DNA of 64,000 nt, from the NCBI GenBank assembly GCA_011174795.1, contig DUEY01000004.1:101-64100 (forward strand), given 5' to 3'. This document shows positions 2 to 36,857 of this stretch, one piece after another. Position 1 is the first letter of the stretch; each line of letters begins with the position of its first letter. The notes beneath the pieces are model-generated. The model had not been told where the DNA came from and made no database searches. It saw only the letters and a list, made by a program, of their open reading frames with translations. This DNA is from Dehalococcoidia bacterium (GTDB lineage Bacteria > Chloroflexota > Dehalococcoidia > SZUA-161). The position numbers and the translations under genes are program-made.

Positions 2-290
2 TTGACGCCAACATCGCCGTGGACCCCACCGCCGACGACTACGCACACGGCGACACCGACGGCAACGGCGGCAGTGACCGAGACATCAACGCCGACTCCG
101 CCGTGGACGCCACCGCCGACAGCTACGCCGACGGCAACACCGACGGCGACAGCGGCAATGACCGAGACGGCCACGCCGACGGCAACACCCACGCCGCCAG
201 GGACGCCTCCGCCTACCGATACGCCTACGGTGACGCCGACACCAACGCCGCCATGGACACCTCTGCCTGATACAACGGCGCCGGCAGCGG
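2..290 (+). repeat. Imperfect tandem coding repeats (Pro/Thr linker, roughly 31-aa period)
   Basis: The PTPPWTPPPT...TATAA(V/M)TET...TPTAT units recur. A similar PT tract occurs again at about 1100-1250. Confidence 0.55.
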
Positions 291-1414
291 TTACCAACCT
301 GTCGGTAATAGGCGCCACCGTGAATTCCATAACACTGACATGGGTCGCGCCGGGTGATGACGGCACTTCGGGGAACGCGGCACAGTATGATATCCGCTAC
401 TTCAATGCGCCGATAACCAGCGAGGCTGTATGGAATACCGCGATGCAGGTGGCAGGTGAGCCCGTGCCACAGCCAGCAGGCTCGACTGAGAACTTCGTGG
501 TTGCCGGGCTGAGCTCCGGTACAACCTACTACTTCGCCATAAAGACGGCTGATGAGGTTCCCAACTGGTCGGGATTGTCCAATAGTCCGTTTGGGGTTAC
601 ACAGAGCGCAGGTGGTGGAGGATGGGGTGGTGGTGCACCTCCGCCTCAGACGTTGCTACTGGTGGTGAATCTGCTGGGCAACATGGACCAGGGGACAATG
701 ACTGCGGATGGAGTGCTCATGGAGTCTATAGATGCCACCGCCGAGGATGGCGTGCTGCTTGCATCCTTATCCCAGGGGACGAAGGTGCTGGGCCCAGACG
801 GCAAGCCGCTTACACGTCTAACCGTCATTAGGGTGGAATCGCTGACATCACTGCCCGAGGGCTATCTACTGGTTGCCGCTTTCGACTTCCAGCCCGATGG
901 CTCTACTTTCGGCAAGCCGATGCATATAACGGTAAATTATGAAGAGGGCGATATCCCTGAGGGGTGCAGCGAGGTATGCCTGGTCGTTGCTCATTTGGAT
1001 AATGAAAGCGGTGAATATTTGTTTATTACTGGCGTAGTGGATACCGATGCCAATACCGTTACCTTTTCTATTGATAGCACCAGCATTGTTGCCATTCTCG
1101 CTCCGGTGCCCGCGCCCGCGACGCCCACCCTTACGCTAACGCCGACGCCTGCGCCGACATCGACCCCGACACCTGGATATACCGAAACGCCGACGCCGCA
1201 ACCCACAGCGACGCCGACTCCGGGGCCGACGGAAGCCCCTCCGCCGGGGTTGGGCCCCGGTGCCTGGACCGGCATCGGTTTAGGCGCTCTCGCGCTTCTG
1301 GGGTTGCTTCTCGGGTTATTTGTGTGGCAGCGACGCAAGAGGAAGTGGGAACGGGTTTTACAGGAAATCGGCTGGACGCCCTGGTCTTGGGAAGGAAGAG
1401 TGAAGACTACGTAG
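2..1414 (+). CDS. Cell-surface protein (5' partial): Pro/Thr-rich linkers, fibronectin-III-like domain, C-terminal transmembrane anchor
   Basis: The ORF is open at the window edge. It has long TPTATPTPPWTPPPT-type repeats at both ends and an FN3-like core (TLTWVAPGDDGTSGNAAQYDIRYF). The C-terminus is a hydrophobic helix (GIGLGALALLGLLLGLFVW) followed by RRKRK. Confidence 0.7.
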   Translation: MTPTSPWTPPPTTTHTATPTATAAVTETSTPTPPWTPPPTATPTATPTATAAMTETATPTATPTPPGTPPPTDTPTVTPTPTPPWTPLPDTTAPAAVTNLSVIGATVNSITLTWVAPGDDGTSGNAAQYDIRYFNAPITSEAVWNTAMQVAGEPVPQPAGSTENFVVAGLSSGTTYYFAIKTADEVPNWSGLSNSPFGVTQSAGGGGWGGGAPPPQTLLLVVNLLGNMDQGTMTADGVLMESIDATAEDGVLLASLSQGTKVLGPDGKPLTRLTVIRVESLTSLPEGYLLVAAFDFQPDGSTFGKPMHITVNYEEGDIPEGCSEVCLVVAHLDNESGEYLFITGVVDTDANTVTFSIDSTSIVAILAPVPAPATPTLTLTPTPAPTSTPTPGYTETPTPQPTATPTPGPTEAPPPGLGPGAWTGIGLGALALLGLLLGLFVWQRRKRKWERVLQEIGWTPWSWEGRVKTT

Positions 1415-1531: not shown

Positions 1532-3973
1532 CTAGGATGCTTTGTTCTTATTCCCCGTCTTTTTCTGGGACTTCTTTTCTGCCTTCTCTTCTTCCTTCAT
1601 GAACTCCTTCATCCCCTTGGCAAGCTGCTCCAGTCGGTCCTGAACACGCCTGTTGATAGATTTCGCCTCGAACCTGCCGTCCTTCAATCGCTTTCCTGCC
1701 TTCATACCTGTCAGCAACTCTATACCCTCATCCACATTATGCACACTGTACATATTAAATTTACCTTCTCGTATTGATTCCACCACCTCCTCCTTCAGCA
1801 TCAGGTTCTGGACGTTACTCTCGGGGACTATCACCCCCTGCTCGCCGGTCAGCCCTCTGGACTTGCACAGCTCATAGAACCCCTCTATCTTCTGGTTCAC
1901 GCCACCGATCGCCTGCACTTCGCCCTTCTGGTTGATCGATCCAGTCACAGCGATGCCCTGCTTGATGGGAATGCCGGAGATAGCGGAGAGAAGCGCATAG
2001 AGCTCGGTGCTGGAGGCACTATCGCCTTCCACCTCCTCGTAGCTCTGCTCAAAGACAATGCGTGCGGCGAGGGAGAGGGGGATACTGCTGGCATAGCGTT
2101 CAGCTAAGAAACCGCTGAGGATGAGGACCCCCTTGGTATGGATAGGACCACCCAGCTTGGCTTCGCGCTCGATGTCTATCAGCCCCTCGCGGCCGGCGGC
2201 GACGCTGGCTGTTATACGGTTCGGTCTGCCGAAACTGAGGTCGCCCAGATTGACTATCGACAAGCTGTTTACCTGTCCTATGGCATCACCCCCGGTGTCT
2301 ATCTTGAGGAGCCCCCGCTCCATCATCTCCCTGAGGCGCTCCTGAACCAGATTTGAGCGATAATCCTTCTCCTCAATAGCCTTTGAGATGTGCTCACTCA
2401 GTATCAGTTTCTTATTATCTGTTCCCGCCCAGTAGTTAGCCTCCCTGATGATATCCGCTATTTCTGCGAATCTTGTAGAGAGCTTCTGCTGATCTTCAGC
2501 CAGCCTGGAGCTGTGATCGATGATTTTAGCCACGGCCATCTTGTCCAGATGACGGAGATTCTCCTTGCCGCAAACAGCACAGAGCGTGGCATTATACAGT
2601 CTCAAGGTGTCGTCATTAAGGTCCATCTGGCTGTCGAAATGCGCCTTGACCTTGAACAACTCGGGGAACTCGCGGTCGTACCTGTAGAGCAGGTAGTAGT
2701 ACAGGTTCTCGCCGATGAGGATGACCTTGATATTCAGGGGTATTGGCTCCGGCTGGATAGTCTTGAGAGTGAAGAAGCCGAACCGCTCCGCCAGCTCTTC
2801 GATAATAATTTTCTGCTCTCTGAGGGAGCGTTTCAGGCTCTCCCATGACATAATATTCTGCAGGATATCCTCCACCCTGATAACCAGATAGCCGCCGTTG
2901 GCCTTATGTAGAGAGCCGGAGCGAATCATGGTGAAGTCGCTGCTGATGGCGCCGAAGTGCGTTTCCTTCTCAAGCCGGCCTATGAGGTTATTGAACGTGG
3001 GGTTCATCTCTATGATTACGGGGGCGCCTTTGAGATGCGAGTTGTCAACGAGGACGTTCACCTCATATTTTTTAAAGGTCTGCGCTGCGGCCAGCTGGGC
3101 GAAGGGATTCCCCGACTCGGGCTCCGGTGGGGAGCGGAAAAAGTCCTTATCTTCGACAACGTTTTCCTGTACCGCTTTGAGGTATTCAATGGTGTCGGGG
3201 TTATCCCCGTATTTTTTAATCAGGTCTCCAATTGGCGCTTCCAGAACAAACTGGACAACCTCCTCGTCCGTCTTCTCGATTCGCTCTGAGGTTTCCCTGT
3301 CCCAGGCTTTTATCTGGGTCATAGCCTCTTTAAGCTCATCTTGAATATCCTCACGGCGCTTGTTGAGTTCCTCCTTTTTTTCCGGACTGAGGGCCAGCAT
3401 ATCCTGCTCGGAGAGGGGTTTTCCATCAACGATGGGGATAATCATTATGCCCATGGGCGACATCTGAATGGCGAAACCCTTTTCATGGGCCATCTGGTTC
3501 AGCTGGTTGAACAGCTTTTCCTTCCTTTCGTTGAAGGTGTGGACTATGGCGTCTCGCCGTTTGACGTAGTCGTCGCTTTCGAATGCCTTGCGGATATCTG
3601 TCTGGACCGTATCCACGAGTTTTTTCATGTCTTTTTGAAACCGGGCTCCCGTACCGGCCTTCAGCTTTAGAGATTTGGGCCGGTAGGAGTCCTGAAAGTT
3701 GTGAACATAGCACCAGTCCGGCGGCACATCCTTGTCCCGGGCTATGCGCTCCAGGAAGGCGACGATGGCTGTCATTTTCCCGGTGCCGGGCAGACCTGCG
3801 GCATAGATATTAAAACCGGAATGCTGTACGCCCAGGCCAAACTGAAGGGCATGGAGTGCCCGGTCCTGCCCGATTATGGTCGATACCGGCTCCAGGCTCT
3901 CCGTGCTCTCGAGTCCCAGATTATCCGGGTTGCAAACGCGTCTCACCTCTGCGGCCGTTAGCTTCCTGGGCAT
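1532..3973 (-). CDS. Lon-like ATP-dependent protease (AAA+ module with large helical insertion plus Lon S16 proteolytic domain; COG1067/LonC-like)
   Basis: Walker A is GLPGTGKMT. The C-terminal Lon protease domain reads GDSASSTELYALLSAISGIPIKQGIAVTGSINQKGEVQAIGGVNQKIEGF. A GGAGG RBS precedes the ATG. Confidence 0.85.
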   Translation of the reverse strand: MPRKLTAAEVRRVCNPDNLGLESTESLEPVSTIIGQDRALHALQFGLGVQHSGFNIYAAGLPGTGKMTAIVAFLERIARDKDVPPDWCYVHNFQDSYRPKSLKLKAGTGARFQKDMKKLVDTVQTDIRKAFESDDYVKRRDAIVHTFNERKEKLFNQLNQMAHEKGFAIQMSPMGIMIIPIVDGKPLSEQDMLALSPEKKEELNKRREDIQDELKEAMTQIKAWDRETSERIEKTDEEVVQFVLEAPIGDLIKKYGDNPDTIEYLKAVQENVVEDKDFFRSPPEPESGNPFAQLAAAQTFKKYEVNVLVDNSHLKGAPVIIEMNPTFNNLIGRLEKETHFGAISSDFTMIRSGSLHKANGGYLVIRVEDILQNIMSWESLKRSLREQKIIIEELAERFGFFTLKTIQPEPIPLNIKVILIGENLYYYLLYRYDREFPELFKVKAHFDSQMDLNDDTLRLYNATLCAVCGKENLRHLDKMAVAKIIDHSSRLAEDQQKLSTRFAEIADIIREANYWAGTDNKKLILSEHISKAIEEKDYRSNLVQERLREMMERGLLKIDTGGDAIGQVNSLSIVNLGDLSFGRPNRITASVAAGREGLIDIEREAKLGGPIHTKGVLILSGFLAERYASSIPLSLAARIVFEQSYEEVEGDSASSTELYALLSAISGIPIKQGIAVTGSINQKGEVQAIGGVNQKIEGFYELCKSRGLTGEQGVIVPESNVQNLMLKEEVVESIREGKFNMYSVHNVDEGIELLTGMKAGKRLKDGRFEAKSINRRVQDRLEQLAKGMKEFMKEEEKAEKKSQKKTGNKNKAS

Positions 3974-5110: not shown

Positions 5111-5755
5111 TCACGAAATAATGGTCACGCGCGGCCTGAGCACAATCTGAGAATTCTTGACAGGCTGGTACTTTCTCATCAAGTCGAGCCTGCCCTGCTC
5201 GTTGAGGCGCTGGTAGATGAGCGTCCAGGCGCAATCCTTCTCTTTATCGACTTCGCATTTGCCGTTATTGGTGCCGCCACAGGGCCCGTTGAGCAATCCC
5301 TTGTGGCATGCGGTGATAGGGCAGATGCCCGCGGTATAACCCAGGACGCAGTGCCCGCACTGGTCACATACCTCGTGGAAATAGCCCGGCCCGTCCTCTA
5401 CACCGATAAAGAGGGTGTCCAGAGCGGGGATGACCGGCTTGCTGATATAAGAACCGACCTTCTGTACACCCAGGGCGCAGGACATCACCAGAATGCAGTC
5501 CGCACTCTGAATGAAGCCGGTGTTTTCATTCAGGGATGCTTCTGTCATATCATCGCAGGCGGTGGGGATGACCGTCCAGCCGGTAACCATCTTCCCCATT
5601 TCCTGCAGGCGCTCCTTCATATCTAGGACCTCTTCTCTGCCGCCGGTCCTGGTCATGGTGGCGCATGTACCGCAGCCGATGATATATACCCTTTCCAGAC
5701 CCTCAAGTTGATGCTCGACCTCCTCGAGTGACTTCTGTCTGGTTATAGATTTCAT
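5111..5755 (-). CDS. metV: MetV-like Cys-rich subunit (MTHFR C-terminal-type domain)
   Basis: Cys-rich segment CDQCGHCVLGYTAGICPITACHKGLLNGPCGGTNNGKCEVDKEKDCAW carries the GPCGG hallmark. The gene lies immediately upstream of metF with a 14-nt gap. Confidence 0.75.
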   Translation of the reverse strand: MKSITRQKSLEEVEHQLEGLERVYIIGCGTCATMTRTGGREEVLDMKERLQEMGKMVTGWTVIPTACDDMTEASLNENTGFIQSADCILVMSCALGVQKVGSYISKPVIPALDTLFIGVEDGPGYFHEVCDQCGHCVLGYTAGICPITACHKGLLNGPCGGTNNGKCEVDKEKDCAWTLIYQRLNEQGRLDLMRKYQPVKNSQIVLRPRVTIIS

Positions 5756-8865: not shown

Positions 8866-9354
8866 CTATCCGCTGCCCTTTTTGTCCTCGAAGAGTTGAG
8901 CTACCTTCTTAGGATTCATGTTGCCATGGGTATCCTTTCCGATAACGATATTGGGTGCCAGGGCACAAACGCCTATACAGGCGACGGTCTCCAGTGTGTA
9001 CTCTAAGTCGGGGCTGGTCTGGCCTTCTTCGAGGCCAAGATGCTGCTTCACTAATTTTAATATAGTCTTCCCACCACGTACGTGGCACGCTGTGCCCCGA
9101 CACACCCTGACAACCCTTTTCCCTCGGGGCGTGGTATAGAGCTGTTCATAGAAAGTGATTACCCCCTGTACCTCTGACGGGAATAGCGCGAACGCTCGGG
9201 CTATGGGATTGATAGCCTCGGGAGGAATGTATCCGATCTCATCCTGAATCTCCTGAAGGAGAGGGATGAGGGGCCAACTCTGCTCACGGTAGCTATCTAT
9301 GATCTCAGCTACCCGCGTCATGTCGGGTTTGACTGTTTCTGGAGTCTTATCCAT
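8866..9354 (-). CDS. NuoE/HydC-like thioredoxin-fold [2Fe-2S] ferredoxin
   Basis: Motifs VRVCRGTACHVRGG ... ETVACIGVCALAPN. The gene overlaps the upstream stop by 8 nt and ends 1 nt before the next start. Confidence 0.85.
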   Translation of the reverse strand: MDKTPETVKPDMTRVAEIIDSYREQSWPLIPLLQEIQDEIGYIPPEAINPIARAFALFPSEVQGVITFYEQLYTTPRGKRVVRVCRGTACHVRGGKTILKLVKQHLGLEEGQTSPDLEYTLETVACIGVCALAPNIVIGKDTHGNMNPKKVAQLFEDKKGSG

Positions 9355-12037
9355 GGGGCTCAGCCCTTTCTAGCTTCACCGCACATGCTTTTAGCGCCGG
9401 GGTTTTAGTCCGGGGGTCGAGGGTGATGCCGAATAGCTGGTTGACAGGGGTTGAGGGGAACGAAAGGGGCATGAATAGCATTCCCTCAGGCATCGTATCG
9501 GTGATTTTGGCTACAGCGTTTACCTCACCTATGGGTGAGATGACCTTAACCGATTCACCGTCACTGATTCCGACCTGCCCGGCATCCGATTCTCCGATTT
9601 CCACATAGGCCTCCGGCGAAAATGCTCTCAGCCTAGGGGACCTGGAGCTTCTAGAGCCGGTACCTGAATGGTAGAGTATGCTCCCCACGAGCAGGGTGAG
9701 AGGATACCCATCTTTGGGCATCTCCGCCGGCGGCTCATAGTGTACCGGGGAGAAGCGACCGAATCCGCTTGGAAATTGACCTTTGTACAGGCGCCTCTTT
9801 TTCAAAGGGTCTCTGTCCAGTTCCGCTCGATGTATATCCTTTGTCTGAGAATCTCTGTAGTCTGTAATCTGATAAAGGGAAACCATCTCCTGAATCTCGT
9901 CCATAACTTCCTGGAGGGAGGAATACGGCATCGGGTTACCCATACTGCTGGCCATCCGGTTAATTATCTCCCAGTCTGGCAGGCTGTCGCCGAGCGGTTC
10001 GATAACCTTATGTAGCTGCTGAACCCTCCCTTCGAAATTGGTAAAAGTGCCTTCCTTTTCGGCGAAGCTGGCAGCAGGGAGAACCACGTTTGCCAGTTTC
10101 GCCGTTTCGGTGAGGAACATATCGCTTACTACAAGGAAATCGAGGGATTCCAGCGCCTGCTTAACGAGAGAAGGGCTGGGGAAGCTCAATACCGGATTCT
10201 CTCCCACAATGCATATGCCCTTGACATTTCCATCTTTGGCCTGTTCCATCACCTCGAGGGCTGTCAGTCCGGGATTAACGGGCAAGTCGGTGCCCCAGCG
10301 GTCTGCGAACCTCTTTCTTTCCGCGTCATTATCCACGCTCTGGTAACCGGGTAGCAAATCGGGCGTGGTACCCATATCACATGCACCCTGTCCATTGCAG
10401 TACCTCTGCATCGCAAAGATGCCGCCCGTGATACCGATATTGCCGGTCAGCATCGCCAGATTGGCAAGTGCCATGACGCTGTCCGTCCCTGTTACATGCT
10501 GGGTGATTCCGTTGCCATAGACGATTGAAGCGAGGGTTGCTTCAGCAAAAAGCCGGGCAGCGCGACAAACATCTTCGCCGGGTACGCCGGTAACCTTTTC
10601 TACGTACTTAGGAGTATATTTCTTTAAATCTTTGGTCAGCGCCTCGAAGTTATCCGTTTTCCTGGTTACGAACTCATCATCCAGCAGGCCCTCATTGATA
10701 ATGAATCGCGCCATGCCATTTATCAGCGCCACATCTGTTCCTATCCTGGGTCGCAGCCAGAGGTGGGCAAATGATGCGAGCCTTGTTTGTTGAGGGTCGA
10801 CCAGCAGTAGCTTGGCACCTTTATATCTGGCTGCTCGCTTGACGGCATATCCCACGATAGGGGCTGAGGCGGGTAGGTTAGCGCCGATAACCAGTATCAC
10901 CTCTGACTGCTCGAGGGCATCGAGGCAGTTGGTGCTGCCGGCGAAGCCTACAGCTGCCCCCAGGCCTGCGATGCTTGCTGCACTGTACAGACGGCTGCTG
11001 TTGTCGATATTGTTGGTGCCCAGTACACAACGGGCCAGCCTCTGCAACAGGTAGTTCTCCTCGTTCGTGCACCGGGAGGAGCCGAGGACAGCCAGGCTGT
11101 TGGAGCCGTGAGCTTTCTTTATACGATTTAGTTCGGAGGACATGTGGTCTAGAGCCTGTTCCCAGGACACTGCCTCGAAATCGCCGTTCACCCTCATCAG
11201 GGGGCTTGTCAGTCTCTCCGGGCTGTGCACGAAATCGTAGCCATAGCTTCCCCTGACGCAGAGTGTGCCATGATTAACGGTACTCTCTTTGCCCGGTCTG
11301 GCACGCACTATCCGGTTATCCCTGACACCGAGATTGATACTGCATCCACAGCCGCAGAACGGACAGATGGTTGACACATTGGTCGGGGTTGTGCCCCGGT
11401 ATACCGGCTGCTTCTCCATGAGTGCGCCCGTGGGGCAAATTGCCACACAGGTGCCACAGAAGGTACACTCCGAATTCTCCAGCGGCATGTCATTGAGAGT
11501 TGCTGGCTTTGAGGCAAATCCCCGGTTGATATAGTCGATAGCGCCCTCGACGACCATCTCCTGGTCTGCCCGTATGCACTTGGCGCATAGAATGCACTTG
11601 CTTAAATCCCTTTCAATGAACGGGTTGACCTCTTCGATAGTGGCTGGCTGGGGAATCCGCTGCATGTCTATCACCCCGATCCCGATATCCGAGGCGATCT
11701 TGCGCAGTTCGCAGGTATTTCCCTTGTCGCACACCAGGCAGCTATCGGGATGGCTCGACAGCATGAGCTTGATTATAGTAGTGCGGCGTTCCTGTACCTT
11801 GGGTGATTCCGTGTTGATCACCATTCCCGCTTCTATAGGAGTGACGCAGGACGCCGAAAGCCTGCCTGAGCGTTCGTCTTCAACAAGACAGATACGACAG
11901 GCGCCAATCGGTGCCAGACAGGGGTCATGGCAGAGCGTGGGTATGTCGACGCCTGATTCCCGTGCCAGTTCCAGCACGGTCATGCCGGTATGGCCGCTGA
12001 CCTCTCTGCCGTTAAGCGTAATAGTGATTGCTTCCAA
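9347..12037 (-). CDS. FdhA/FdsA/NuoG-like molybdopterin-oxidoreductase-fold subunit with N-terminal [2Fe-2S] and [4Fe-4S] domains; the canonical formate dehydrogenase active-site residues appear substituted
   Basis: TTG start. N-terminal motifs are CHDPCLAPIGACRIC, HPDSCLVCDKGNTC, CILCAKCIRA and CTFCGTCVAICP. The MopB cluster is CPFCGCGCSI...GTLCVRG, and QGACDMG is conserved. See the findings for the Tyr at the Sec/Cys position. Confidence 0.8.
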   Translation of the reverse strand: MEAITITLNGREVSGHTGMTVLELARESGVDIPTLCHDPCLAPIGACRICLVEDERSGRLSASCVTPIEAGMVINTESPKVQERRTTIIKLMLSSHPDSCLVCDKGNTCELRKIASDIGIGVIDMQRIPQPATIEEVNPFIERDLSKCILCAKCIRADQEMVVEGAIDYINRGFASKPATLNDMPLENSECTFCGTCVAICPTGALMEKQPVYRGTTPTNVSTICPFCGCGCSINLGVRDNRIVRARPGKESTVNHGTLCVRGSYGYDFVHSPERLTSPLMRVNGDFEAVSWEQALDHMSSELNRIKKAHGSNSLAVLGSSRCTNEENYLLQRLARCVLGTNNIDNSSRLYSAASIAGLGAAVGFAGSTNCLDALEQSEVILVIGANLPASAPIVGYAVKRAARYKGAKLLLVDPQQTRLASFAHLWLRPRIGTDVALINGMARFIINEGLLDDEFVTRKTDNFEALTKDLKKYTPKYVEKVTGVPGEDVCRAARLFAEATLASIVYGNGITQHVTGTDSVMALANLAMLTGNIGITGGIFAMQRYCNGQGACDMGTTPDLLPGYQSVDNDAERKRFADRWGTDLPVNPGLTALEVMEQAKDGNVKGICIVGENPVLSFPSPSLVKQALESLDFLVVSDMFLTETAKLANVVLPAASFAEKEGTFTNFEGRVQQLHKVIEPLGDSLPDWEIINRMASSMGNPMPYSSLQEVMDEIQEMVSLYQITDYRDSQTKDIHRAELDRDPLKKRRLYKGQFPSGFGRFSPVHYEPPAEMPKDGYPLTLLVGSILYHSGTGSRSSRSPRLRAFSPEAYVEIGESDAGQVGISDGESVKVISPIGEVNAVAKITDTMPEGMLFMPLSFPSTPVNQLFGITLDPRTKTPALKACAVKLERAEPHG

Positions 12038-12107: not shown

Positions 12108-12917
12108 TCAGCCAGAAGCTGGAGTAGGTCTTTCCAGACGCTTTCCTACGTAATGTACAGCCCTTATAGCATTCACCAGCTGTGAGCTGGCAGCCCGCTT
12201 GGGGATGAATCCATAAGCTCCCAGCTTCTCGGCGGCAAGTATGTTCTCCTCATCGTCATACTGAGATAACATCACAACTCTGGTTTTCGGATATTTTTTA
12301 TATATCTGCTTGGTCGCCTCCAGCCCGTTCATTTCCGGCATAACTATGTCCATTATCACAATATCCGGTGATAGCTCGCCCACCTTGTCCACTGACTCTT
12401 TCCCGTTCTCAGCTTGACCGACAACCTCGATGTCACTCTGCAATTCCAGCACTGACCTGATACCATCCCTGACTACCGAGTGGTCATCCACTATAAGCAC
12501 TCTTATGCGCTTAGTAGCCTTATCCAGAATGCTCTGGGCCCTCGAGGCCAGCGCACCTGGCTCTATTGGCTTGGCCACATAGTCCTCGGCCTCCATCAGC
12601 GCCGCTTCATCTCGCCTCCACCCTTTGACAAGTTGCTTTTCCGGTGGTGCATCCATGACGATGATGGGTAAATCCTTGGTCTTGGGATCCTCTCTCAGCC
12701 ACTGGTGCATTGCGAAGGCTTCCCCACGGGGACTCAGTGTACCCAGGATTACCAGGTCCGGGTTAATCGTCTTCATCATTTCCTGGGCTTCTTGCTTGGT
12801 GGAGGCTGTTACGACCTCACACACGTCGCTCTCCAGAGCGCCTTTCAAAGTCGAAGCAAACTCAGGTTCGTCATCGATAATCAGGATCTCTTTCTTCTCT
12901 TCTTGCTTTTCTCCCAT
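12108..12917 (-). CDS. Tandem-receiver protein (REC-REC, no output domain)
   Basis: REC1 is ILIIDDEP...PDLVILGTLSP...YVAKP, with Gly where the phospho-acceptor Asp is expected. REC2 is VLIVDDHSVVRDG...DIVIMDIVMPEMNG...VVMLSQ...GFIPK and looks canonical. A GGAGGTGG RBS is present. Confidence 0.85.
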   Translation of the reverse strand: MGEKQEEKKEILIIDDEPEFASTLKGALESDVCEVVTASTKQEAQEMMKTINPDLVILGTLSPRGEAFAMHQWLREDPKTKDLPIIVMDAPPEKQLVKGWRRDEAALMEAEDYVAKPIEPGALASRAQSILDKATKRIRVLIVDDHSVVRDGIRSVLELQSDIEVVGQAENGKESVDKVGELSPDIVIMDIVMPEMNGLEATKQIYKKYPKTRVVMLSQYDDEENILAAEKLGAYGFIPKRAASSQLVNAIRAVHYVGKRLERPTPASG

Positions 12918-13059
12918 GATCCACCTCCCACTAGCTGCTTTTTTCTATTGTAGTATTTATGATATGGCGCCTTTTTCATCGCGGGAATAGGGGCTTTCCC
13001 CTGAATATGGGAGGATTTTACCTTGAATCACAGGGGATAAAGCCCGACCGTCGAACGAT

Positions 13060-13095
13060 AAACGGAGGGCGAACCTCGGGGTTCGCCCTCCGTTT
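13060..13095 (-). terminator. Stem-loop downstream of the response-regulator gene
   Basis: aaacggagggcgaacc-tcgg-ggttcgccctccgttt gives a 16-bp perfect stem, 20 nt past the stop at 13116. The U-tract is weak. Confidence 0.5.
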
Positions 13096-13115
13096 GCGTT
13101 GCTGCGAGAGTGGGT

Positions 13116-13769
13116 TCACATGCCTATGATTCCCCGCCGTATGGCATACTTAACCAGTTCTATTGTACTGTGAACACCCAGCTTTTTCATGAGACTGGTT
13201 CTGTGCCCCTCGACCGTTTTTGAGGTTATGGATAATGTCTCCGCTATCTCTCGCGTCTTGTATCCTTCGGCAATTAATTTCAGCACGTCTCGCTCTCTAT
13301 CGGTCAACTGTTCATAAGGATCGGTCTTATCCTGCGTGAGCGCCAGTTGCTGGTAGTCTTCCACAAAAAGCTTTGCTATGGAAGGTGACAGATAGGATTC
13401 CCCTGCAAACACCGCCCGGATGCCGGACATAAGCTCGGAAGAGGCTGCCGTTTTGCTGACGAATCCATTGGCTCCGGCCTGGATAGCGGGGAAAACGTGT
13501 TCTTTATCGTCATACTGGGTAAGAACCAGGATCTTTATCTCAGGGAACTCCTTATGTATACGGCGTATAGCTTCCAAACCATTCATAACAGGCATGGCCA
13601 TATCCGTAAGTACGACATCTGGCAGTAGTTTGCCCGTCTTTTCCAGTGCTTCCCTTCCGTCAGCTGCCTCGCCCGCTACCTCTATATCTCCAGCGAGGGC
13701 AAGCAGTGTACAGATGCCGTCTCTAACGACGGTGTGGTCATCTACTATCAGTACCCTTATCTTCAGCAC
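13116..13769 (-). CDS. NarL/FixJ-family response regulator (REC plus LuxR-type HTH)
   Basis: VLIVDDHTVVRDG, DVVLTDMAMPVMNG and a C-terminal LTDRERDVLKLIAEGYKTREIAETLSITSKTVEGHRTSLMKKL. Confidence 0.9.
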   Translation of the reverse strand: MLKIRVLIVDDHTVVRDGICTLLALAGDIEVAGEAADGREALEKTGKLLPDVVLTDMAMPVMNGLEAIRRIHKEFPEIKILVLTQYDDKEHVFPAIQAGANGFVSKTAASSELMSGIRAVFAGESYLSPSIAKLFVEDYQQLALTQDKTDPYEQLTDRERDVLKLIAEGYKTREIAETLSITSKTVEGHRTSLMKKLGVHSTIELVKYAIRRGIIGM

Positions 13770-15060
13770 GCTCTTTACCCCAAAACACCGGCACTTTCAC
13801 TGTGATCTTGGTGCCCTTCCCGGGTTGTGACTGGATATCGCACGTGCCGCCGAGAAGGTTCGCCCTTTCTTTCATACTGAACAGTCCCCGCCCGCGGCCG
13901 CTTTCATCCACCTCAATCGGTCTTGATGCATCAAACCCTATACCGTCGTCCTCGATTTGCATTATGAACTCGTCCGAATCGCACTTCACATTTATTGTTG
14001 CGTTTTTAGCCTTTGAGTGCCAGGCTATATTTGCGATTGACCCCTGGGCGATGCGGTAGAGTGCGAATTCGACTTCTGAAGGTAAGCGTTCCTCCAGACC
14101 TTCGTAGTTCAAGGATAGATTGATGCCTGCTGGCTGAAGACGACTCTCGGCGTATTGGCGGATTGCGGGACCCAGCCCGAGGCTATCCAGAGCAGTCGGC
14201 CGGAGCGACTTCATTATTTTACTTATCTCAGAGCCGAGCTGAAGGGTGATATCATGGGCTTTACCGAGCTTTTCTTTGAACGCGGCATCGCCGAAGTTAG
14301 AGGCGTTAGCGACGTTCAGAAGTGCCTGCATGGTGAGTGAAAGACCGGTCAGCGACTGGCTGGTTTCATCGTGAAGTTCGCGGGCAACCCTGCCCCGCTC
14401 CATTTCCTGAGCAATCAACATGTAACGGGCAAGAAATCGGTAGTTCTCCCGTTCCTTTCTCAGTTGGTCATAGAGCTCCGCCTGCTCAATAGCAACACCT
14501 ACTTGGTCGCCGATTGCGTGCAGCAGATGCATATCGTCTTTGGTAAAATGGCGGGGCGAATGGCTGGCAACGTTTAGTACGCCCAGCACCGTGTCTTTGG
14601 CACGGAGTGGGACACTGATGAACGCCTTGAGGCCTTCTGTGCTTATCAGGTCGCGCCAGGCAGCGCGGGGGTCTGCGGAGATGTCTTCGAGAAGCACGGA
14701 CTTGCCGGTTTGAGCTACCCTTCCCGCAATCCCTTCACCTATGCCAAGGTGCATCTCCTCGGCATATTTATCGGACAGACCACGATAGACCCGGTAGGAG
14801 AGCGTCTGGGTTTGTTCGTCTATAAGCAGGATTCCTCCCACAGCTCCGTTCATAATCTCAAGAACGGTATCGAGAGCGACATTAAGGACGGCGTCGAGGT
14901 CCCACAGACCGCTGACTGCGGCCGAGACTCTGCTTAAGGCTAGAAGCTCGCCGTACGGCTTTTGTAGACTGCTTTCAGAGGCTTCTTCGTTTAACTGTAG
15001 GCTATCCTTCTCAGGGGTGGACTCGATATCCCCATCGCTTTCTGGTTCCATCCTCATCAT
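13738..15060 (-). CDS. GAF-domain sensor histidine kinase (HisKA_3 plus HATPase_c)
   Basis: H-box ARELHDETSQSL. The ATPase region reads DDGIGFD...GRGRGLFSMKERANLLGGTCDIQSQPGKGT, and a GAF-like region lies upstream. The start is ambiguous (ATG at 15105, 15060, 15057 or 15051). The ORF-track extension to 15501 overlaps the thiolase gene and is rejected. The gene overlaps the regulator start by 32 nt. Confidence 0.75.
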   Translation of the reverse strand: MMRMEPESDGDIESTPEKDSLQLNEEASESSLQKPYGELLALSRVSAAVSGLWDLDAVLNVALDTVLEIMNGAVGGILLIDEQTQTLSYRVYRGLSDKYAEEMHLGIGEGIAGRVAQTGKSVLLEDISADPRAAWRDLISTEGLKAFISVPLRAKDTVLGVLNVASHSPRHFTKDDMHLLHAIGDQVGVAIEQAELYDQLRKERENYRFLARYMLIAQEMERGRVARELHDETSQSLTGLSLTMQALLNVANASNFGDAAFKEKLGKAHDITLQLGSEISKIMKSLRPTALDSLGLGPAIRQYAESRLQPAGINLSLNYEGLEERLPSEVEFALYRIAQGSIANIAWHSKAKNATINVKCDSDEFIMQIEDDGIGFDASRPIEVDESGRGRGLFSMKERANLLGGTCDIQSQPGKGTKITVKVPVFWGKERAEDKGTDSR

Positions 15061-15218
15061 CTTTATCTCAGTGAATGCGATAAGCGTAAACGAAGCGCTC
15101 GTCATTGTCAACTTGTGCCCGCAAAATCTGCGCTGCGTTACTTTGGAGCAGGTAAAAAGAATCTGCCCAAGGAAACCCTTGGGCAGATTCTTTATTATAT
15201 GCCTTAGCCGCTCTGATT

Positions 15219-16397
15219 CTAGAGGCCGATGATGAGCACGCTGACGGTATTGCTTACGGGAATGCCACCCAGGTTGTGGGTCAGGCCCAGTTTCGGGTTT
15301 TTTATCTGCCGCTCGGCAGCTCTCCCCTGACACTGAAGGTACACCTCGTACAGCATCCGCAGACCGCTGGCGCCGATGGGGTGGCCGAATGATTTCAGGC
15401 CGCCATCGGGCTGCACCGGCAGGCCTCCATCCAGGTTGAAGAAACCCGACTCTATATCCGCCTTCACCTTGCCCCTCGGGCTGAACTCGAGGTCCTCGCA
15501 CGTAACGGCCTCGGTGATGCTGAAGCAGTCGTGAAGCTCGGCCATACTTATCTCTTCGCGGGGCTTGGTAATCCCGGCTTCGGTATAGGCAGCCTTCCCT
15601 GCTTCAACGGTTGCCCTCACCTGGGTGAAGTCGTAATCGGCTCTCAGTTCGCCCTCGCTGGGGCACACGGAAATCTGCAGCGCCTTGACATAAACAGGGT
15701 CGGGCCTGAACTCCTTTGCCCGGTCGGCGGGGACGACGATAGCCGCTGCTGCTCCATCGCTCACGCCGCAGCAATCGAAGAGGCCCAGGGGCCAGGCGAC
15801 TATTGGAGCGTTCATCACTTGCTCTATGGTTACCTCCCTGCGCAGGTGAGCCTTGGGGTTCAAAGTGCCGTTGTGATGGCTCTTCACCGAGACCGTCCCT
15901 ATCATCCTTTTACCTTCCTCGGGGCTCAAGCCATATACGGAGAAGTATGTGGTAGCCATCAAAGCAAACATCCCGGGCGCTGTTCGGTCAGGGTACCTGT
16001 TGCTGGGCAGGCTCTGCTGGTCGGGAAGCCCGCTGTATCCCGAATCCTTCAGCTTCTCGAAGCCGACGGCAAGGCATATATCGTAGGCTCCGGCTGCTAC
16101 AGCGTAGCAGGCGTTTCTGAAAGCATCCGAACCCGAGGCGCAGGCGTTCTCCACCCTGGTCACCGGTATATACTGAAGCTTCAGAGGGTCGGCGAGGCAG
16201 CGTCCGTCAAAGCCCGATACCCAGGTGCCGCCCCAGGCCGCCTCGATATCTTTGGGCTCTATCTTTGCGTCTTCGACAGCCTCTTTAGTCGCTTCGAATA
16301 TCAGGTCGTTCTTGCTCGCATCCCAGCGCTCGCCGAACTTCGTGCATCCCATGCCTATGATGGCAACTTTATCTCTAATGCCTTTGACGCTTCCCAT
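15219..16397 (-). CDS. SCP-x / archaeal / PhlC-type thiolase-like protein (copy 1)
   Basis: DKVAIIGMGCTKFGE, nucleophile motif VENACASGS, ELHDCFSITE, GHPIGASGLRM. An AAGGAGG RBS is present. Confidence 0.85.
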   Translation of the reverse strand: MGSVKGIRDKVAIIGMGCTKFGERWDASKNDLIFEATKEAVEDAKIEPKDIEAAWGGTWVSGFDGRCLADPLKLQYIPVTRVENACASGSDAFRNACYAVAAGAYDICLAVGFEKLKDSGYSGLPDQQSLPSNRYPDRTAPGMFALMATTYFSVYGLSPEEGKRMIGTVSVKSHHNGTLNPKAHLRREVTIEQVMNAPIVAWPLGLFDCCGVSDGAAAAIVVPADRAKEFRPDPVYVKALQISVCPSEGELRADYDFTQVRATVEAGKAAYTEAGITKPREEISMAELHDCFSITEAVTCEDLEFSPRGKVKADIESGFFNLDGGLPVQPDGGLKSFGHPIGASGLRMLYEVYLQCQGRAAERQIKNPKLGLTHNLGGIPVSNTVSVLIIGL

Positions 16398-16435
16398 GTA
16401 GCCTCCTTAACTTGTTTCTTCCGGATAAATTTGCA

Positions 16436-16508
16436 CCGTTCGCCCTGAGCCTGTCGAAGGGAGCCTTATGAAGGGCCGTTCATGGTTCGACAAGCTCACC
16501 ACGAACGG
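16436..16508 (+). repeat. Solo, degenerate copy of the palindromic core of the MITE-like element (copy A)
   Basis: ccgttcgccctgagcctgtcgaaggg[agccttatgaagggc]cgttcatggttcgacaagctcaccacgaacgg. It matches the cores at 18104-18159, 24114-24170 and 40694-40751 but carries a 15-nt internal insertion. Confidence 0.7.
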
Positions 16509-16511
16509 CAT

Positions 16512-17936
16512 CTAACACCGTATCGGCGTACACTTCCACCAGTAGTTGTGGATGCCCTCGAAGAAGTGGACCTTTCTGAAGGACACCTCCACCTCCATGC
16601 CGGTCTTTACATCGTCGGGGTCACGGTCCACCATATTGAATATAATCCTTCCGCCTTCTTCGAAATCGACCGCTGCGATGGTAGTCGGCGGGTCGATGCT
16701 GGCCGCCAGGTTGTCATGGGAGAAGGTATTAATCTTGGCTTTCTTTCTGGTGAAGTCGTAGGGCTCGAAATTATCCTGAGCCTGGCAGATGACACACACA
16801 CGCTGCGGCGGGTACTGGGGCGTTCCACAGCTCTTGCATCTGACCCCGTGCAGAGAAAGCCCCCAGTCCATATCCCTCCACAGCGCCGGCACGGATATGT
16901 GATTGATCGGGGGTCGTGGGGGCGGCTCGGTTTCCATCAGGCCGCGCCACTGCACGTACTTCAGGTAGTTCGGTATCATCTTCTTCGATTCCAGGTGACG
17001 CTTTATGCCTCTCCTGTCTTTGATTTTCTCGATGCCCTCGGTCACCTTGAGAATAAACACGTCGCAGCCATCGCCGTAGCCGACACACATGAGGTTGTCC
17101 CCGGCCTTGGCGTCCTCCAGCGATGCTACCAGCATCATCAGGGGAAGGGCGGACCCCGTATTGCCCACCGTCATGTACAGCGGATCCTGGAATTGGGCCA
17201 TGGGGTCAAACCCCATCTTTCCACCTGCCATGCCGAGCAGCCTGGGGTCGGGCGCGTAGATCGCGGCCTTCGTGATATCGCCTGGAGCCATGTTGTATTT
17301 CTGCAAGCCGGCGGCAACCGATGCGGGAACGATACGAAGGTAGCCGGCCTCCCGGACGAACCGCTCCTCCCAGAAGCGGACGAAAGTATCCTTGTCGGAG
17401 CGCCACATATCGTGGAACTCCTGGAATGCGTGATAGCTGCCGACAGCCTCAACCGCGACGTCGGATTTCGACACCAATAGGGCGGCTGCCCCATCGCCGA
17501 ATGACATCTCCTTGTCCCCGTTGGGGGCACCCATCCTGGTTTCCCCACAGGCAACCAGCACACAGCTTGCCGACCCCGCCTCAACGGCGTCGAGGGCTGC
17601 CCTCAGGGCATTGGTCCCTGACCTCAGGGAGCCGGCGAAGTCCATGGTCATCGTCTCCCTGCTCAGACCCAGCGCGCCCGCTACTATTGATGCCGCCTGC
17701 TTCTCCTTGTAAGGCGAGGTGGTCGAAGCGAAGTACAGACGGTCGACTTTCTGGGGGTCGATACCGGTCAGGCAGTCTCTGCCGGCTGCGACGGCCATTG
17801 TTATGCTGTCTTCGTCGTAGCTGGCAACGGCCTTCTCACCGGGAATGGGCAGCATACTGTCCCATGCATTCTTGATATCGGGGCGGCTTAGCCTGTAAAG
17901 GGGTATATAAGCGCCATACGATGCAATCCCTGCCAT
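16512..17936 (-). CDS. HMG-CoA-synthase-like (thiolase-fold) domain fused to a C-terminal DUF35 zinc-ribbon/OB-fold domain (copy 1)
   Basis: The start is placed at MAGIASYGAYIPLYRL (aa 54 of the ORF) with an AAGGAGG RBS. The C-terminal Zn ribbon is CKSCGTPQYPPQRVCVICQ. The N-terminal ORF-track extension runs into a repeat element. Confidence 0.8.
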   Translation of the reverse strand: MAGIASYGAYIPLYRLSRPDIKNAWDSMLPIPGEKAVASYDEDSITMAVAAGRDCLTGIDPQKVDRLYFASTTSPYKEKQAASIVAGALGLSRETMTMDFAGSLRSGTNALRAALDAVEAGSASCVLVACGETRMGAPNGDKEMSFGDGAAALLVSKSDVAVEAVGSYHAFQEFHDMWRSDKDTFVRFWEERFVREAGYLRIVPASVAAGLQKYNMAPGDITKAAIYAPDPRLLGMAGGKMGFDPMAQFQDPLYMTVGNTGSALPLMMLVASLEDAKAGDNLMCVGYGDGCDVFILKVTEGIEKIKDRRGIKRHLESKKMIPNYLKYVQWRGLMETEPPPRPPINHISVPALWRDMDWGLSLHGVRCKSCGTPQYPPQRVCVICQAQDNFEPYDFTRKKAKINTFSHDNLAASIDPPTTIAAVDFEEGGRIIFNMVDRDPDDVKTGMEVEVSFRKVHFFEGIHNYWWKCTPIRC

Positions 17937-18050
17937 TGAGCCTCCTTTTCGCGACTTTCGGTCATTATTATAACAGCGCGGCCACTCGCTCACAATCCCC
18001 CTCAGCTTCCCGCCGGATACGGATGTGCACGCCATGGGAGGGCCAGAGGA

Positions 18051-18213
18051 GGTACCGTTTGGTTTTAGTTGGTGTATATAGTTGAATTTAGGCAATTATT
18101 TTCCGTTCGCCCTGAGCCTGTCGAAGGGCGTTCATGGTTCGACAAGCTCACCACGAACGTTTTTAGAACACGGTACTTTGAGAATCATACTAACAATGAC
18201 CGAACGGTATACC
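18051..18213 (+). mobile_element. MITE-like element, copy B (~160 bp, terminal inverted repeats, palindromic core)
   Basis: The ends are ggtaccgtttgg...ccgaacggtatacc. The internal core is ccgttcgccctgagcctgtcgaagggcgttcatggttcgacaagctcaccacgaacg. It is near-identical to the copies at 24060 and 40645. Confidence 0.7.
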
Positions 18214-20252: not shown

Positions 20253-21458
20253 TCAAAGCCCGACGATGATGACGCTGACTATAGCCCGGTAAGGGATGCC
20301 GCCCAGGTTGTGGGTGAGGCCGTATTTGGGGTCCTTTATCTGCCGCTTATCGGCCCTGCCCTGGAGCTGAAGGTACATCTCGTAGACCATCCGTATCCCG
20401 GAGGCGCCGACAGGATGCCCGAAGCACTTCAATCCCCCGTCCGGTTGAATCGGCTGCGCTCCGTCCAGGTTGAATCGGCCGCCCATGATATCGTCCTTCA
20501 CCTTGCCCCTCGGGCTGAACTGCAGGTCCTCCATGGTCACCGCCTCGGTGATGGAGAAGCAGTCGTGAACCTCGGCCATGCTTATCTCATCGCGCGGGTT
20601 CTTTATACCTGCCTCTTCGTATGCCCTTGCACCGGCGCGGGTGGTGCACTCAACGTGCGTGTAGTCAAAGTCGTTGAACATCTCCTCCTCGCCCGAGGTC
20701 GCGGCGATTTGCAAAGCTTTGACGTATACGGGGTCGGGCCTGAAGTCCTTCGCCATGTCGGCGCGGCAGAGGATAGCCGCTGCCGCCCCGTCGCTTACAC
20801 CGCAGCAGTCGAACAGTCCTAGGGGCCAGGCGACGATGGGGGCGTTCATTATCTGTTCGACCGTAACCTCGCGGCGGAGGTGGGCCTTGGGGTTGAGGGC
20901 GCCGTTGTGGTGGCTCTTGGCGGAGACCGTGGCCAGCATCCTCTTGCCCTCCTCGGGGCCGATGCCGTAGCGGTTGAAGTACCTCGTAGCGAGCATGGCG
21001 TACATCCCCGGCGCGGTCTGATTGGCGGCGATAATCCTGTGCTTGGTGCCGATAACCGCCCAGTGGGAGAACTCGGGAAGACCGCCGTAGCCGGTGTCCT
21101 TGAGCTTCTCAATGCCGAGCGCCATGGCGATATCGCATGCTCCCGATGCTATGGCGTAGCATGCGCCCCTTATCGCCTCCGAGCCGCTGGCGCACATGTT
21201 CTCGACCTTTGTCACGGGTATGAACGGCAGCTTCAGTGCTTGAGATAAAGGCAGGGCGCTGTCCCCGATGTTGACCGAGGTAAACTCGGGGCCTCCCTGC
21301 CAGGCTGCCTGTATATCCTTCTTCTCTATCCCCGCATCCTCAATGGCTTCCTTGAAAGCATCTATCATCAGGTCCTCGGGGCTCTGGTTCCAGAGCTCCC
21401 CGAACCGGGTGCATCCCATTCCGATGATGGCTACCTTGTCCTTTATTCCCTCTGGCAC
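20253..21458 (-). CDS. SCP-x / archaeal / PhlC-type thiolase-like protein (copy 2)
   Basis: DKVAIIGMGCTRFGE, VENMCASGS, EVHDCFSITE, GHPVGASGIRM. GTG start with an AAGGAGG RBS. It is a clear paralogue of 15219..16397. Confidence 0.85.
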   Translation of the reverse strand: MPEGIKDKVAIIGMGCTRFGELWNQSPEDLMIDAFKEAIEDAGIEKKDIQAAWQGGPEFTSVNIGDSALPLSQALKLPFIPVTKVENMCASGSEAIRGACYAIASGACDIAMALGIEKLKDTGYGGLPEFSHWAVIGTKHRIIAANQTAPGMYAMLATRYFNRYGIGPEEGKRMLATVSAKSHHNGALNPKAHLRREVTVEQIMNAPIVAWPLGLFDCCGVSDGAAAAILCRADMAKDFRPDPVYVKALQIAATSGEEEMFNDFDYTHVECTTRAGARAYEEAGIKNPRDEISMAEVHDCFSITEAVTMEDLQFSPRGKVKDDIMGGRFNLDGAQPIQPDGGLKCFGHPVGASGIRMVYEMYLQLQGRADKRQIKDPKYGLTHNLGGIPYRAIVSVIIVGL

Positions 21459-21510
21459 TTTCGCCTCCTTCTATGCCTGAATCTGAGTCTCTCCCTAATC
21501 TGAGGCTGAA

Positions 21511-33362: not shown

Positions 33363-33391
33363 GGTTCCATCCCTTCATCCCCGCAAACGGT

Positions 33392-36844: not shown

Positions 36845-36857
36845 TGCCTCCTGCTAC

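Follow-up and report, generated by a model that had tools for sequence, protein, structure and literature searches.

A formate dehydrogenase-like subunit without the canonical catalytic residues heads a MetVF-linked operon in a Dehalococcoidia bacterium

The window analysed here, a 64,000-nucleotide stretch of contig DUEY01000004.1 from a Dehalococcoidia bacterium (assembly GCA_011174795.1), carries on its minus strand an operon of five genes, the boundaries of which overlap or abut. The first gene encodes a large subunit resembling the alpha subunit of formate dehydrogenase (FDH), referred to below as the FdhA-like protein, and it is followed by genes for a NuoE-like subunit, a fusion of a NuoF-like and a GltD/NfnL-like protein (NuoF::GltD), and MetV and MetF, the two components of a MetVF-type methylenetetrahydrofolate reductase (MTHFR) (Table 1). 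Judged from sequence comparison, gene context and a predicted structure, the FdhA-like protein is probably an FDH-derived, formate-inactive iron-sulfur (Fe-S) scaffold of a five-subunit, MetVF-linked NAD(P)H complex, a so far uncharacterised type of MTHFR.

Table 1. Coordinates of the genes, codons and motifs in the window (pLDDT, predicted local distance difference test; TM, template modelling score; AF2, AlphaFold2; ORF, open reading frame; OB, oligonucleotide/oligosaccharide-binding)
Feature	Position	Strand	Basis
FdhA-like subunit, 896 aa	9347..12037	-	Pfam and NCBIfam domains; AF2 pLDDT 90.4; Foldseek TM 0.94 against FDH alpha
Tyr351 (TAC, 10985-10987) and Ser352 (AGT) at the Sec/Cys Mo-ligand and catalytic His positions	10982..10987	-	Alignments, codon check
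Gln544 codon at the position of FdhF catalytic Arg333, with Arg at +1	10406..10408	-	Alignments
Arg262 codon at the position of FdhF Lys44 (99% Lys in canonical FDHs)	11252..11254	-	Alignments
FS0 [4Fe-4S] motif of the MopB domain (Cys225, 228, 232 and 260), fully conserved	11258..11365	-	Ligand alignment
Asp158 codon, replacing the fourth Cys of the first CxxCxxCxxxC motif (ferredoxin-type cluster towards FS0)	11564..11566	-	Ligand alignment
Variable charged loop, residues 726-752, in place of the conserved 'GLQWPC'/'QWPC' loop of canonical FDHs	9782..9862	-	AF2, alignment
NuoE/HydC-like [2Fe-2S] subunit; start overlaps the FdhA-like stop by 8 nt	8866..9354	-	Pfam, NCBIfam
NuoF/BfuB-like and GltD/NfnL-like fusion, 1020 aa	5802..8864	-	Pfam
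MetV (DUF5981), Fe-S/Zn subunit of MetVF-type MTHFR	5111..5755	-	Pfam, synteny
MetF (MTHFR); with the probable start at Met47 of a longer ORF, 4197-5234, it has 299 aa, the length found in L001	4197..5096	-	Pfam, L001
Tandem-REC response regulator, LuxR-type response regulator and GAF/HisKA_3 histidine kinase, upstream of the operon	12108..15501	-	Pfam
LonB/LonC-like AAA+ protease, 813 aa, adjoining the operon	1532..3973	-	
Pro/Thr-rich repeat protein; ORF runs off the 5' end	2..1414	+	
Beta-oxidation-related genes, including two pairs of a thiolase-like and a ChsH2-type OB-fold protein	15219..18095, 20253..22953, 31647..40493	-	

The FdhA-like gene starts with TTG and is read through 896 codons in an unbroken frame; it has no in-frame TGA, as an initial annotation of the window had also noted, and an 896-residue protein identical to its product (P0001) is found on other contigs in public metagenomes. 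In the N-terminal part, the Pfam domains follow in the order of a [2Fe-2S] domain, a NuoG-type His-ligated [4Fe-4S] motif and an Nqo3-type ferredoxin domain; in the C-terminal part, they are the molybdopterin-oxidoreductase Fe4S4, Molybdopterin and Molydop_binding domains. The cluster inventory comprises a [2Fe-2S], a His-ligated [4Fe-4S], two ferredoxin-type [4Fe-4S] and the FS0 [4Fe-4S] cluster, and the MopB part has four domains, including the C-terminal cap. Against TIGR01591, the NCBIfam equivalog for FDH subunit alpha, the protein scores 708.2 bits with a curated cut-off of 666.25, and annotation pipelines therefore call it 'formate dehydrogenase subunit alpha'; the same label is borne by its named public homologues, all of which come from Chloroflexota/Dehalococcoidia metagenome bins. 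Against TIGR01973, the NuoG model, it reaches 354.7 bits, below the cut-off of 470.05, which excludes it from the NuoG family; by hidden Markov model and by fold, it is closer to FdsA/FdhA than to NuoG.

The catalytic positions were located by translating E. coli fdhF and nuoG from NC_000913 and aligning them with the window protein in MAFFT, and their conservation was read from a 241-sequence alignment that includes 116 canonical FDH homologues and 123 members of the window clade, i.e., its orthologues from Chloroflexota/Dehalococcoidia. In the MAFFT alignment, FdhF GTNNVDCCARV-U-H-GPSVAGL stands opposite GTNNIDNSSRL-Y-S-AASIAGL of the window, and HMMER pairwise alignments to solved FdsA-type and ForC structures agree in register (for example, ...carvCHsp... 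of an FdsA-type Protein Data Bank (PDB) chain opposite ...ssrlYSaa...). The initial annotation had placed Tyr351 at the Mo-ligating selenocysteine (Sec140) of FdhF and Ser352 at the adjacent His141, and both assignments are borne out by the true FdhF sequence, the larger alignment, the HMMER register and the codons; an alignment of this rigour could have put a cysteine and a histidine there, and it gave tyrosine and serine instead. Its further proposal, that Arg333 is shifted or replaced, agrees with FdhF 'VRGQNNVQG' lying opposite 'MQRYCNGQG', where R333 corresponds to Gln544, G334 to Arg545, Q335 to Tyr546 and V338 to Gly549. A further difference, one that the initial annotation did not list, is Lys44 of FdhF (LCLKG) facing Arg262 (LCVRG). 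At the Sec position, 66 of the 116 canonical FDHs carry U and 48 carry C, whereas the window clade is made up of 115 sequences with Y, 5 with C, 2 with H and 1 with F. The His141 column is 99% H in the former against 78% S in the latter, and the Arg333 column 100% R against 97% Q. Because the same losses run through the entire 123-member clade, chance or sequencing error is ruled out, and these replacements indicate that formate chemistry has most likely been lost in the window protein.

What stands at the former ligand position differs from relative to relative. In the closest homologue (83% identity), it is His-Thr; five homologues have Cys-Ser, yet lack the catalytic His and Arg, and His or Phe occurs in others. 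Among another 89 relatives from Chloroflexota, 68 carry Y at this position, 9 C, 5 R, 3 S and 1 H, and in none of them does Cys-His occur together with the Arg. Relatives at 43–50% identity that share the operon type hold S, H, R or T. Considering that the closest homologue has His-Thr and others Cys, Phe, Ser, Arg or Thr, the notion of Tyr351 as a specific new metal ligand was down-weighted. Among the best 150 representatives, with this architecture, of clusters formed at 50% identity (P0121–P0270), roughly half lack the canonical Cys/Sec-His and Arg, and a neighbour-joining ordering groups these separately from the canonical block with C-H, R and K. 'FdhA' proteins devoid of the active site are very common in public data, and the few source names that were checked read FDH or molybdopterin oxidoreductase.

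The five genes occur in the same order at all eight loci of sufficient length, spanning 43–100% identity (the window, L001, L004, L006–L008, L086 and L089); L001, for instance, is a 396-kb contig with 71% identity. Among the Dehalococcoidales loci at approximately 60% identity, which come from metagenome-assembled genomes (MAGs), the order is kept in four of five, and the fifth ends at a contig edge. It is also kept at 43–47% identity, in relatives that carry Ser, His or Arg as the residue in the ligand position, and truncated loci, including that of the Deltaproteobacteria bacterium SM23_61 MAG, agree over their extent. Since the FdhA-like gene always stands ahead of NuoE, NuoF::GltD, MetV and MetF, the catalytic end of the operon is the MTHFR. 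A related arrangement was described in one paragraph by Yi et al. (2021), who noted genes for NuoEFG homologues ahead of metFV in Dethiosulfatarculus sandiegensis and 'widely in Desulfobacterales and Chloroflexi', and who speculated on a new, possibly bifurcating and at that time unstudied 'X type' MTHFR. The gene pattern of this type, with metV-metF adjoining NuoE/F/G homologues across taxa, is present in the Chloroflexota loci and in the deltaproteobacterial MAG. The accepted MTHFR types I–IV leave out the 'X type', no later characterisation of it was found in the literature searched, and no description of a degenerate active site in its 'NuoG homologue' large subunit was found in the papers searched.

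Genomes outside this group provide a reference. A scan of GTDB genomes yielded, for the most part, canonical Sec/Cys FDHs at 40–46% identity, and the Tyr clade amounted to five loci only. Across the 70+ GTDB loci in that identity range, the motifs CAR[LT][U/C]H, NPLRGQNNVQG and C.KG are near-invariant, and the sole exceptions in the scan are the MetVF-linked Dehalococcoidales loci; the usual gene order at the canonical loci is NuoE, NuoF, FdhA, and a NuoF::GltD fusion is found in at least eight of them. One Dehalococcoidales MAG, W73_240 (L033, 2938–16110), carries two modules back to back. The first consists of MetF, DUF3786, NuoE, NuoF::GltD and a canonical FdhA with Cys-His, Arg and Lys, and the second of a 224-aa HoxU-like protein, NuoE, a short NuoF, MetV, a histidine kinase and MetF. 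The HoxU-like protein corresponds to the N-terminal Fe-S domain of NuoG/FdhA and has no MopB domain, so that a MetVF-linked module can exist without any MopB domain; the N-terminus of the window protein is 47.6% identical to it, compared with 41.8% to the N-terminus of the canonical FdhA of the same genome. The pair of modules looks like a snapshot of the ancestral and minimal states of the MetVF-linked module. In another variant, three contigs with more distantly related operons (L085, L086 and L087, of P0128, P0126 and P0130, respectively) have an extra MetF copy immediately upstream of the FdhA-like gene and a MerR-type helix-turn-helix/receiver regulator ahead of it, and L086 additionally has MetV-MetF downstream. 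In Candidatus Solincola (Actinomycetota; L026, 849–10682), MetV-MetF lies about 3 kb upstream of NuoE, NuoF and a Sec-type FdhA; proximity of MetVF to NuoEF/FDH modules is thus not confined to the clade lacking the active site.

Residue losses and gene context both bear on whether the protein could still be a working FDH or CO2 reductase with an unconventional active site. Such an enzyme would be in keeping with the score above the TIGR01591 cut-off, with the uniform public annotation as FDH alpha, and with a Wood-Ljungdahl context, the acetyl-CoA synthase gene CdhC being located near the operon in L001. However, it would have to operate with Sec/Cys, His and Arg replaced and with Lys44, Gln335 and Val338 changed as well, and without any conserved substitute ligand, whereas canonical FDHs, including the one in the Dehalococcoidales MAG described above, keep these residues almost invariably; this explanation is very improbable.

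The predicted fold is that of an FDH. An AlphaFold2 model built from a 101-sequence alignment has a pLDDT of 90.4 and a predicted TM score of 0.92, and Foldseek, with query-normalised TM scores, places it at 0.94 to the alpha subunits of NAD-dependent FDHs (7vw6_A, 9ktl_A, 8rqz_C and 6tg9_A), 0.74–0.78 to NuoG and 0.66–0.67 to Csac NfnA and StnC; the structure prediction recommended in the initial annotation has thereby returned an FDH-alpha fold. With R. capsulatus FdsA (6tg9), M. extorquens Fdh1A (7vw6) and B. subtilis ForC/YjgC (8rqz), the window protein shares domain order and fold at 32–35% identity, along with FS0, the cap domain and the cluster set; the shorter E. coli FdhF gives a TM of 0.69–0.72 and 34–36% identity. 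The differences from these enzymes are the Tyr, Ser, Gln and Arg in place of Sec/Cys, His, Arg and Lys44, a cluster ligand that is Asp, and the loss of H181, R460 and R581 throughout the clade; moreover, the FDH partners are FdsBGD, in contrast to NuoE, NuoF::GltD, MetV and MetF. Only residues 726–752 of the model are unconfident (pLDDT below 50). They form the most variable part of the clade, as opposed to the canonical 'GLQWPC' loop, which is about 97% conserved; the loop of the clade may serve to dock a partner or may be left over from the substrate funnel.

Degeneration of the MopB part was gauged over the 114 of its columns in which conservation among canonical FDHs reaches 90% or more. 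The window protein keeps 77% of them and the clade consensus 82%, compared with 89% in E. coli FdhF and 39% in E. coli NuoG. Changed columns cluster round the active site (in FdhF numbering, C136, A137, U140, H141, H181, R204, P331, R333, G334, Q335, V338, R460, R581, H655 and T665). A literature search found no residue-level list of contacts to the molybdopterin guanine dinucleotide in FdhF; columns relevant to the cofactor were represented by the 53 of the 114 in which E. coli NapA and FdnG have the same residue, two enzymes that share the cofactor with FDHs and differ in substrate or enzyme type. Of these, the window retains 40, FdhF 48 and NuoG 22. Three residues common to FDHs, FdnG and NapA, namely H181, R460 and R581, are lost across the whole clade; about half of its members have lost K44 and R204, and the window protein lacks both. 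When the mean divergence of the MopB part is expressed relative to that of the N-terminal Fe-S part, the clade has a value of 1.57 and the canonical FDHs one of 0.84, which implies a relaxed yet real constraint on the MopB part, and its mean pairwise identity among hundreds of homologues remains 68%.

Fe-S ligands are conserved in the clade with the sole exception of residue 158, which is Asp in 107 of 123 clade members and Cys in 108 of 110 canonical FDHs. The ligands of the His-ligated cluster, by comparison, are kept in 123 of 123 clade members and in 76 of 116 canonical FDHs. From its cysteine motifs, the cluster with Asp158 would correspond to A2 in the nomenclature of R. capsulatus FdsA, and the change from Cys would leave an Asp-ligated or [3Fe-4S] cluster on the branch towards the former active site. 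The initial annotation had regarded both the N-terminal [2Fe-2S]/[4Fe-4S] domains and the MopB fold as intact; this holds for the MopB fold, and for the N-terminal domains it must be amended by the one ligand that is now Asp. A decaying pseudogene or an assembly artefact, for which nothing speaks beyond the loss of active-site residues, is at odds with the intact frame, the identical protein on other contigs, the hundreds of homologues with their 68% MopB identity and retained Fe-S ligands, and the confident model. Pseudogene and sequencing error alike were rejected on these conservation data, and the likelihood of such an origin is negligible.

A more serious alternative is that a Mo/W-bis-pyranopterin is still bound, with no canonical ligand or through a tyrosine oxygen, and that it acts as a redox centre or as a non-formate catalytic site. 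A protein ligand is not obligatory for the Mo-pterin cofactor, as arsenite oxidase exemplifies, and the retained MopB invariants and cofactor-shared columns, well above those of NuoG, the fully conserved FS0 ligands, the complete cap domain in a fold that superposes closely on holo-FDH structures, and the prevalence of Tyr in the clade speak for this alternative. Nevertheless, the uniform loss of H181, R460 and R581 and the partial loss of K44 and R204 count against it, and so do a ligand position that is unconserved among relatives with the same operon type, the relaxed relative constraint on the MopB part, the MetVF-linked variant devoid of a MopB domain and the altered ligand of the cluster bridging to FS0. 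Likewise, fdhD, mobA and Mo-cofactor genes are absent from the operon and from the 64-kb window; genes for Mo-cofactor synthesis, FdhD and tungstate or molybdate transport were found nowhere in the window, which says nothing of the rest of the genome. A bound pterin is thus considered conceivable, though unlikely.

The flavoprotein fusion resembles subunits of electron-bifurcating enzymes. The NuoF part of the fusion has an N-terminal [2Fe-2S] domain, a flavin mononucleotide (FMN)/NADH site and a [4Fe-4S] cluster, and the GltD/NfnL-like part has two [4Fe-4S] clusters, a flavin adenine dinucleotide (FAD) and an NAD(P)H site. Over residues 7–540, the NuoF part finds its best PDB matches, at 650–790 bits, in BfuB subunits of bifurcating enzymes (NiFe-HydB 7t2r_B, HydB 7q4v_B and 8a6t_B, StnB 8oh5_B and NfnB 9n5u_B); FdsB and Nqo1 give about 400 bits. 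For MetV, a sequence search of the PDB gave no match. In keeping with the Bfu family, a BfuB-type NuoF with N-terminal [2Fe-2S] and a NuoE-like BfuC are both present. The NfnL/GltD-like domain begins at about residue 540, straight after the NuoF four-helix bundle, and so sits where the C-terminal B3/B4 ferredoxin domain of BfuB would be; the latter is missing from the window fusion.

A close parallel is offered by the bifurcating transhydrogenases of the Bfu family, StnABC and NfnABC (PDB 8oh5, 9bov and 9n5u), which likewise combine a NuoE-like subunit and a BfuB-type NuoF bearing the N-terminal [2Fe-2S] domain with an NADPH/FAD domain of the NfnL/GltD type and a large-subunit body that resembles Fdh/NuoG but is catalytically inactive. 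The FdhA-like, NuoE-like and NuoF::GltD proteins hold the same modules fused differently: the NfnL-like domain is on the large subunit in StnABC/NfnABC and on the C-terminus of the NuoF-like subunit in the window, in place of B3/B4. Furthermore, the Fdh-like body of the window is full length with its cap and reaches a TM of just 0.66–0.67 to NfnA/StnC, and its operon, unlike theirs, ends in MetV-MetF. The Fdh-like domains of StnC and Csac NfnA have been reported as catalytically inactive; in Csac NfnA, the pterin site is reported to be incomplete, with a map lacking pterin density, and the clusters towards it to be a probable evolutionary remnant. The scaffold of the window is a variant of this inactive Fdh/NuoG-like theme in NuoEF/Bfu-type enzymes, and in this respect it is partly anticipated in the literature. 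Among the FdhA homologues, seven canonical Cys-His proteins of 1365–1589 aa (P0139, P0150, P0167, P0169–P0171 and P0206) have an extra N-terminal stretch of about 480–580 aa before the part that matches the window protein from about residue 100; these may be NfnL/GltD::FdhA fusions, with a StnC-like architecture that has an active site.

Given an equal domain inventory, the three proteins could also form a free-standing Stn/NfnABC-like NADH/NADPH/ferredoxin transhydrogenase that is merely co-transcribed with a separate, ferredoxin-dependent MetVF, particularly as type II MetVF enzymes use reduced ferredoxin as the donor in vitro. What speaks against this is the invariant gene order and tight coupling to MetV-MetF over 43–100% identity and at least two phyla, and the minimal HoxU-like/NuoE/NuoF module that adjoins MetV, with MetF nearby, and has no NADPH domain; that module could not be a transhydrogenase. 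An independent transhydrogenase is regarded as improbable, to about the same degree as a retained pterin.

Other known systems overlap with the operon in part. MetVF-type MTHFRs (type II; type III, MetVF-RnfC2; and type IV, MetVF-HdrABC-MvhD) resemble the window in their adjacent metV and metF and in their association with an NAD(P)H-oxidising flavoprotein/Fe-S module, and in type III a MetV domain is fused to the RnfC domain of RnfC2; in the window, however, the electron-input module is neither RnfC2 nor Hdr/Mvh, but an FDH-derived alpha subunit with NuoE and NuoF::NfnL. NuoG/Nqo3 of complex I shares the N-terminal [2Fe-2S]/[4Fe-4S] chain and a MopB-type domain free of catalysis, but it is far more degenerate, as its column retention shows, and no membrane-arm genes lie near the window operon, the neighbours being only NuoE-like, NuoF::GltD, MetV and MetF. 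In the same class of organisms, the DET0187-type FDH-like complex iron-sulfur molybdoenzyme of Dehalococcoides/Dehalogenimonas also lacks the catalytic Sec/Cys and has been predicted to be non-functional as an FDH; by its published description, it is an FdnGHI-type, membrane-associated protein linked to a hydrogenase and a reductive dehalogenase, whereas a NuoG-type Fe-S domain at the N-terminus and partners of the NuoE/NuoF type mark the window protein. Identity with the 'NAD-FdhAB' of Sewell et al. (2017) was rejected, since its best match is a canonical FdhA at 60% identity.

Taken as an Fe-S scaffold, the descendant of an NAD(P)-linked FDH alpha subunit would be the large subunit, equivalent to BfuA/NuoG, of a soluble complex completed by the NuoE-like subunit, the NuoF::GltD/NfnL-like fusion, MetV and MetF. 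NAD(P)H would be oxidised at the FMN and/or FAD sites of the flavoprotein fusion, and the electrons would pass through the [2Fe-2S]/[4Fe-4S] chain of the FdhA-like N-terminus to the MetV clusters and on to the MetF flavin, where methylene-tetrahydrofolate (methylene-THF) and methyl-THF would be interconverted; the MopB domain would be kept chiefly as a structural and docking body. Both the assembly of the five proteins into one physical complex and the electron path are inferred, and an exit of electrons at the His-ligated cluster, suggested by its strict conservation and by the analogy to complex I, is speculative. Oxidation of methyl-THF with NAD+ is endergonic by standard thermodynamics, and because the NuoF part is also of the Bfu type, flavin-based bifurcation or confurcation with ferredoxin is plausible. 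The oxidative direction being uphill with NAD+, confurcation with reduced ferredoxin is attractive; beta-oxidation genes in the window and the acetyl-CoA synthase gene by the operon in L001 imply that the pathway may run oxidatively.

Several observations weigh against this assignment as a scaffold of a single enzyme. The protein exceeds the TIGR01591 cut-off, it retains most of the 114 invariant and 53 cofactor-shared columns, and it keeps both FS0 and a cap domain that is absent from the pterin-free NfnA; synteny by itself is no proof of a physical complex; and bifurcation is uncertain because the fusion has the NfnL-like domain in place of B3/B4, the ferredoxin domain that bifurcation by HydABC reportedly requires. 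Even so, the scaffold within a MetVF-linked complex remains the probable reading. The initial annotation had held that the fold is kept as a scaffold while formate chemistry is lost, which is strengthened by the clade-wide replacement of residues, the varying ligand, the MTHFR synteny, the MopB-free module and the faster divergence of the MopB part; its likening of the protein to NuoG-type subunits needs amending, as the protein is FdsA/FdhA-like by sequence model and fold. Its view that the FDH annotation is probably wrong finds support in the catalytic residue losses and the MetVF gene context, despite the TIGR01591 score.

The surroundings of the operon complete the picture. The regulator trio upstream also precedes the operon in L001, and different two-component genes occupy that place in other clades; the trio probably regulates the operon and lies outside the enzyme. 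A promoter and terminator scan of 3.9–13.2 kb yielded no convincing signal over the shuffled expectation. Apart from the thiolase-like/ChsH2-type pairs, there is a full beta-oxidation set with two acyl-CoA synthetases, an acyl-CoA dehydrogenase, a thiolase, a hydroxyacyl-CoA dehydrogenase/enoyl-CoA hydratase fusion and an acetoacetate decarboxylase-like protein, which suggests an organic-acid-oxidising lifestyle with acetyl-CoA entering an oxidative Wood-Ljungdahl pathway. The Pro/Thr-rich repeat protein at the 5' end contains a single fibronectin type III domain; its C-terminus has a hydrophobic anchor and, behind it, a basic tail, and it is likely to be a cell-surface protein. Other genes in the window encode DNA polymerase I, Fpg, a branched-chain amino-acid transporter and dnaN.

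For the family, these results concern hundreds of public entries that bear the name 'formate dehydrogenase subunit alpha'; they belong to Chloroflexota/Dehalococcoidia and to some Deltaproteobacteria, and their sequence and context argue against formate oxidation. Reconstructions of subsurface Chloroflexota that count such proteins as FDHs would over-call formate metabolism. As a clear case of modular enzyme evolution, a whole FDH/NuoEF module has apparently been recruited, with inactivation of its own catalytic site, to supply a different terminal enzyme. The physiological electron donor or acceptor of MTHFR and its energy coupling constitute a long-standing question of Wood-Ljungdahl bioenergetics, and in the operon there is a concrete candidate, amenable to expression, for the module that feeds electrons into a MetVF-type MTHFR. 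It is possible, albeit less likely than not, that the operon represents a new, flavin-based bifurcating or confurcating class of methylene-THF reductase, built on a recycled FDH, that couples the interconversion of methyl-THF and methylene-THF to NADH, NADPH and/or ferredoxin. In such an enzyme, the MopB pocket, with its conserved Tyr and Asp-ligated bridging cluster, might keep a redox role; if true, the coupling would solve the energetic problem of the MTHFR step for Wood-Ljungdahl Dehalococcoidia and Desulfobacterota.

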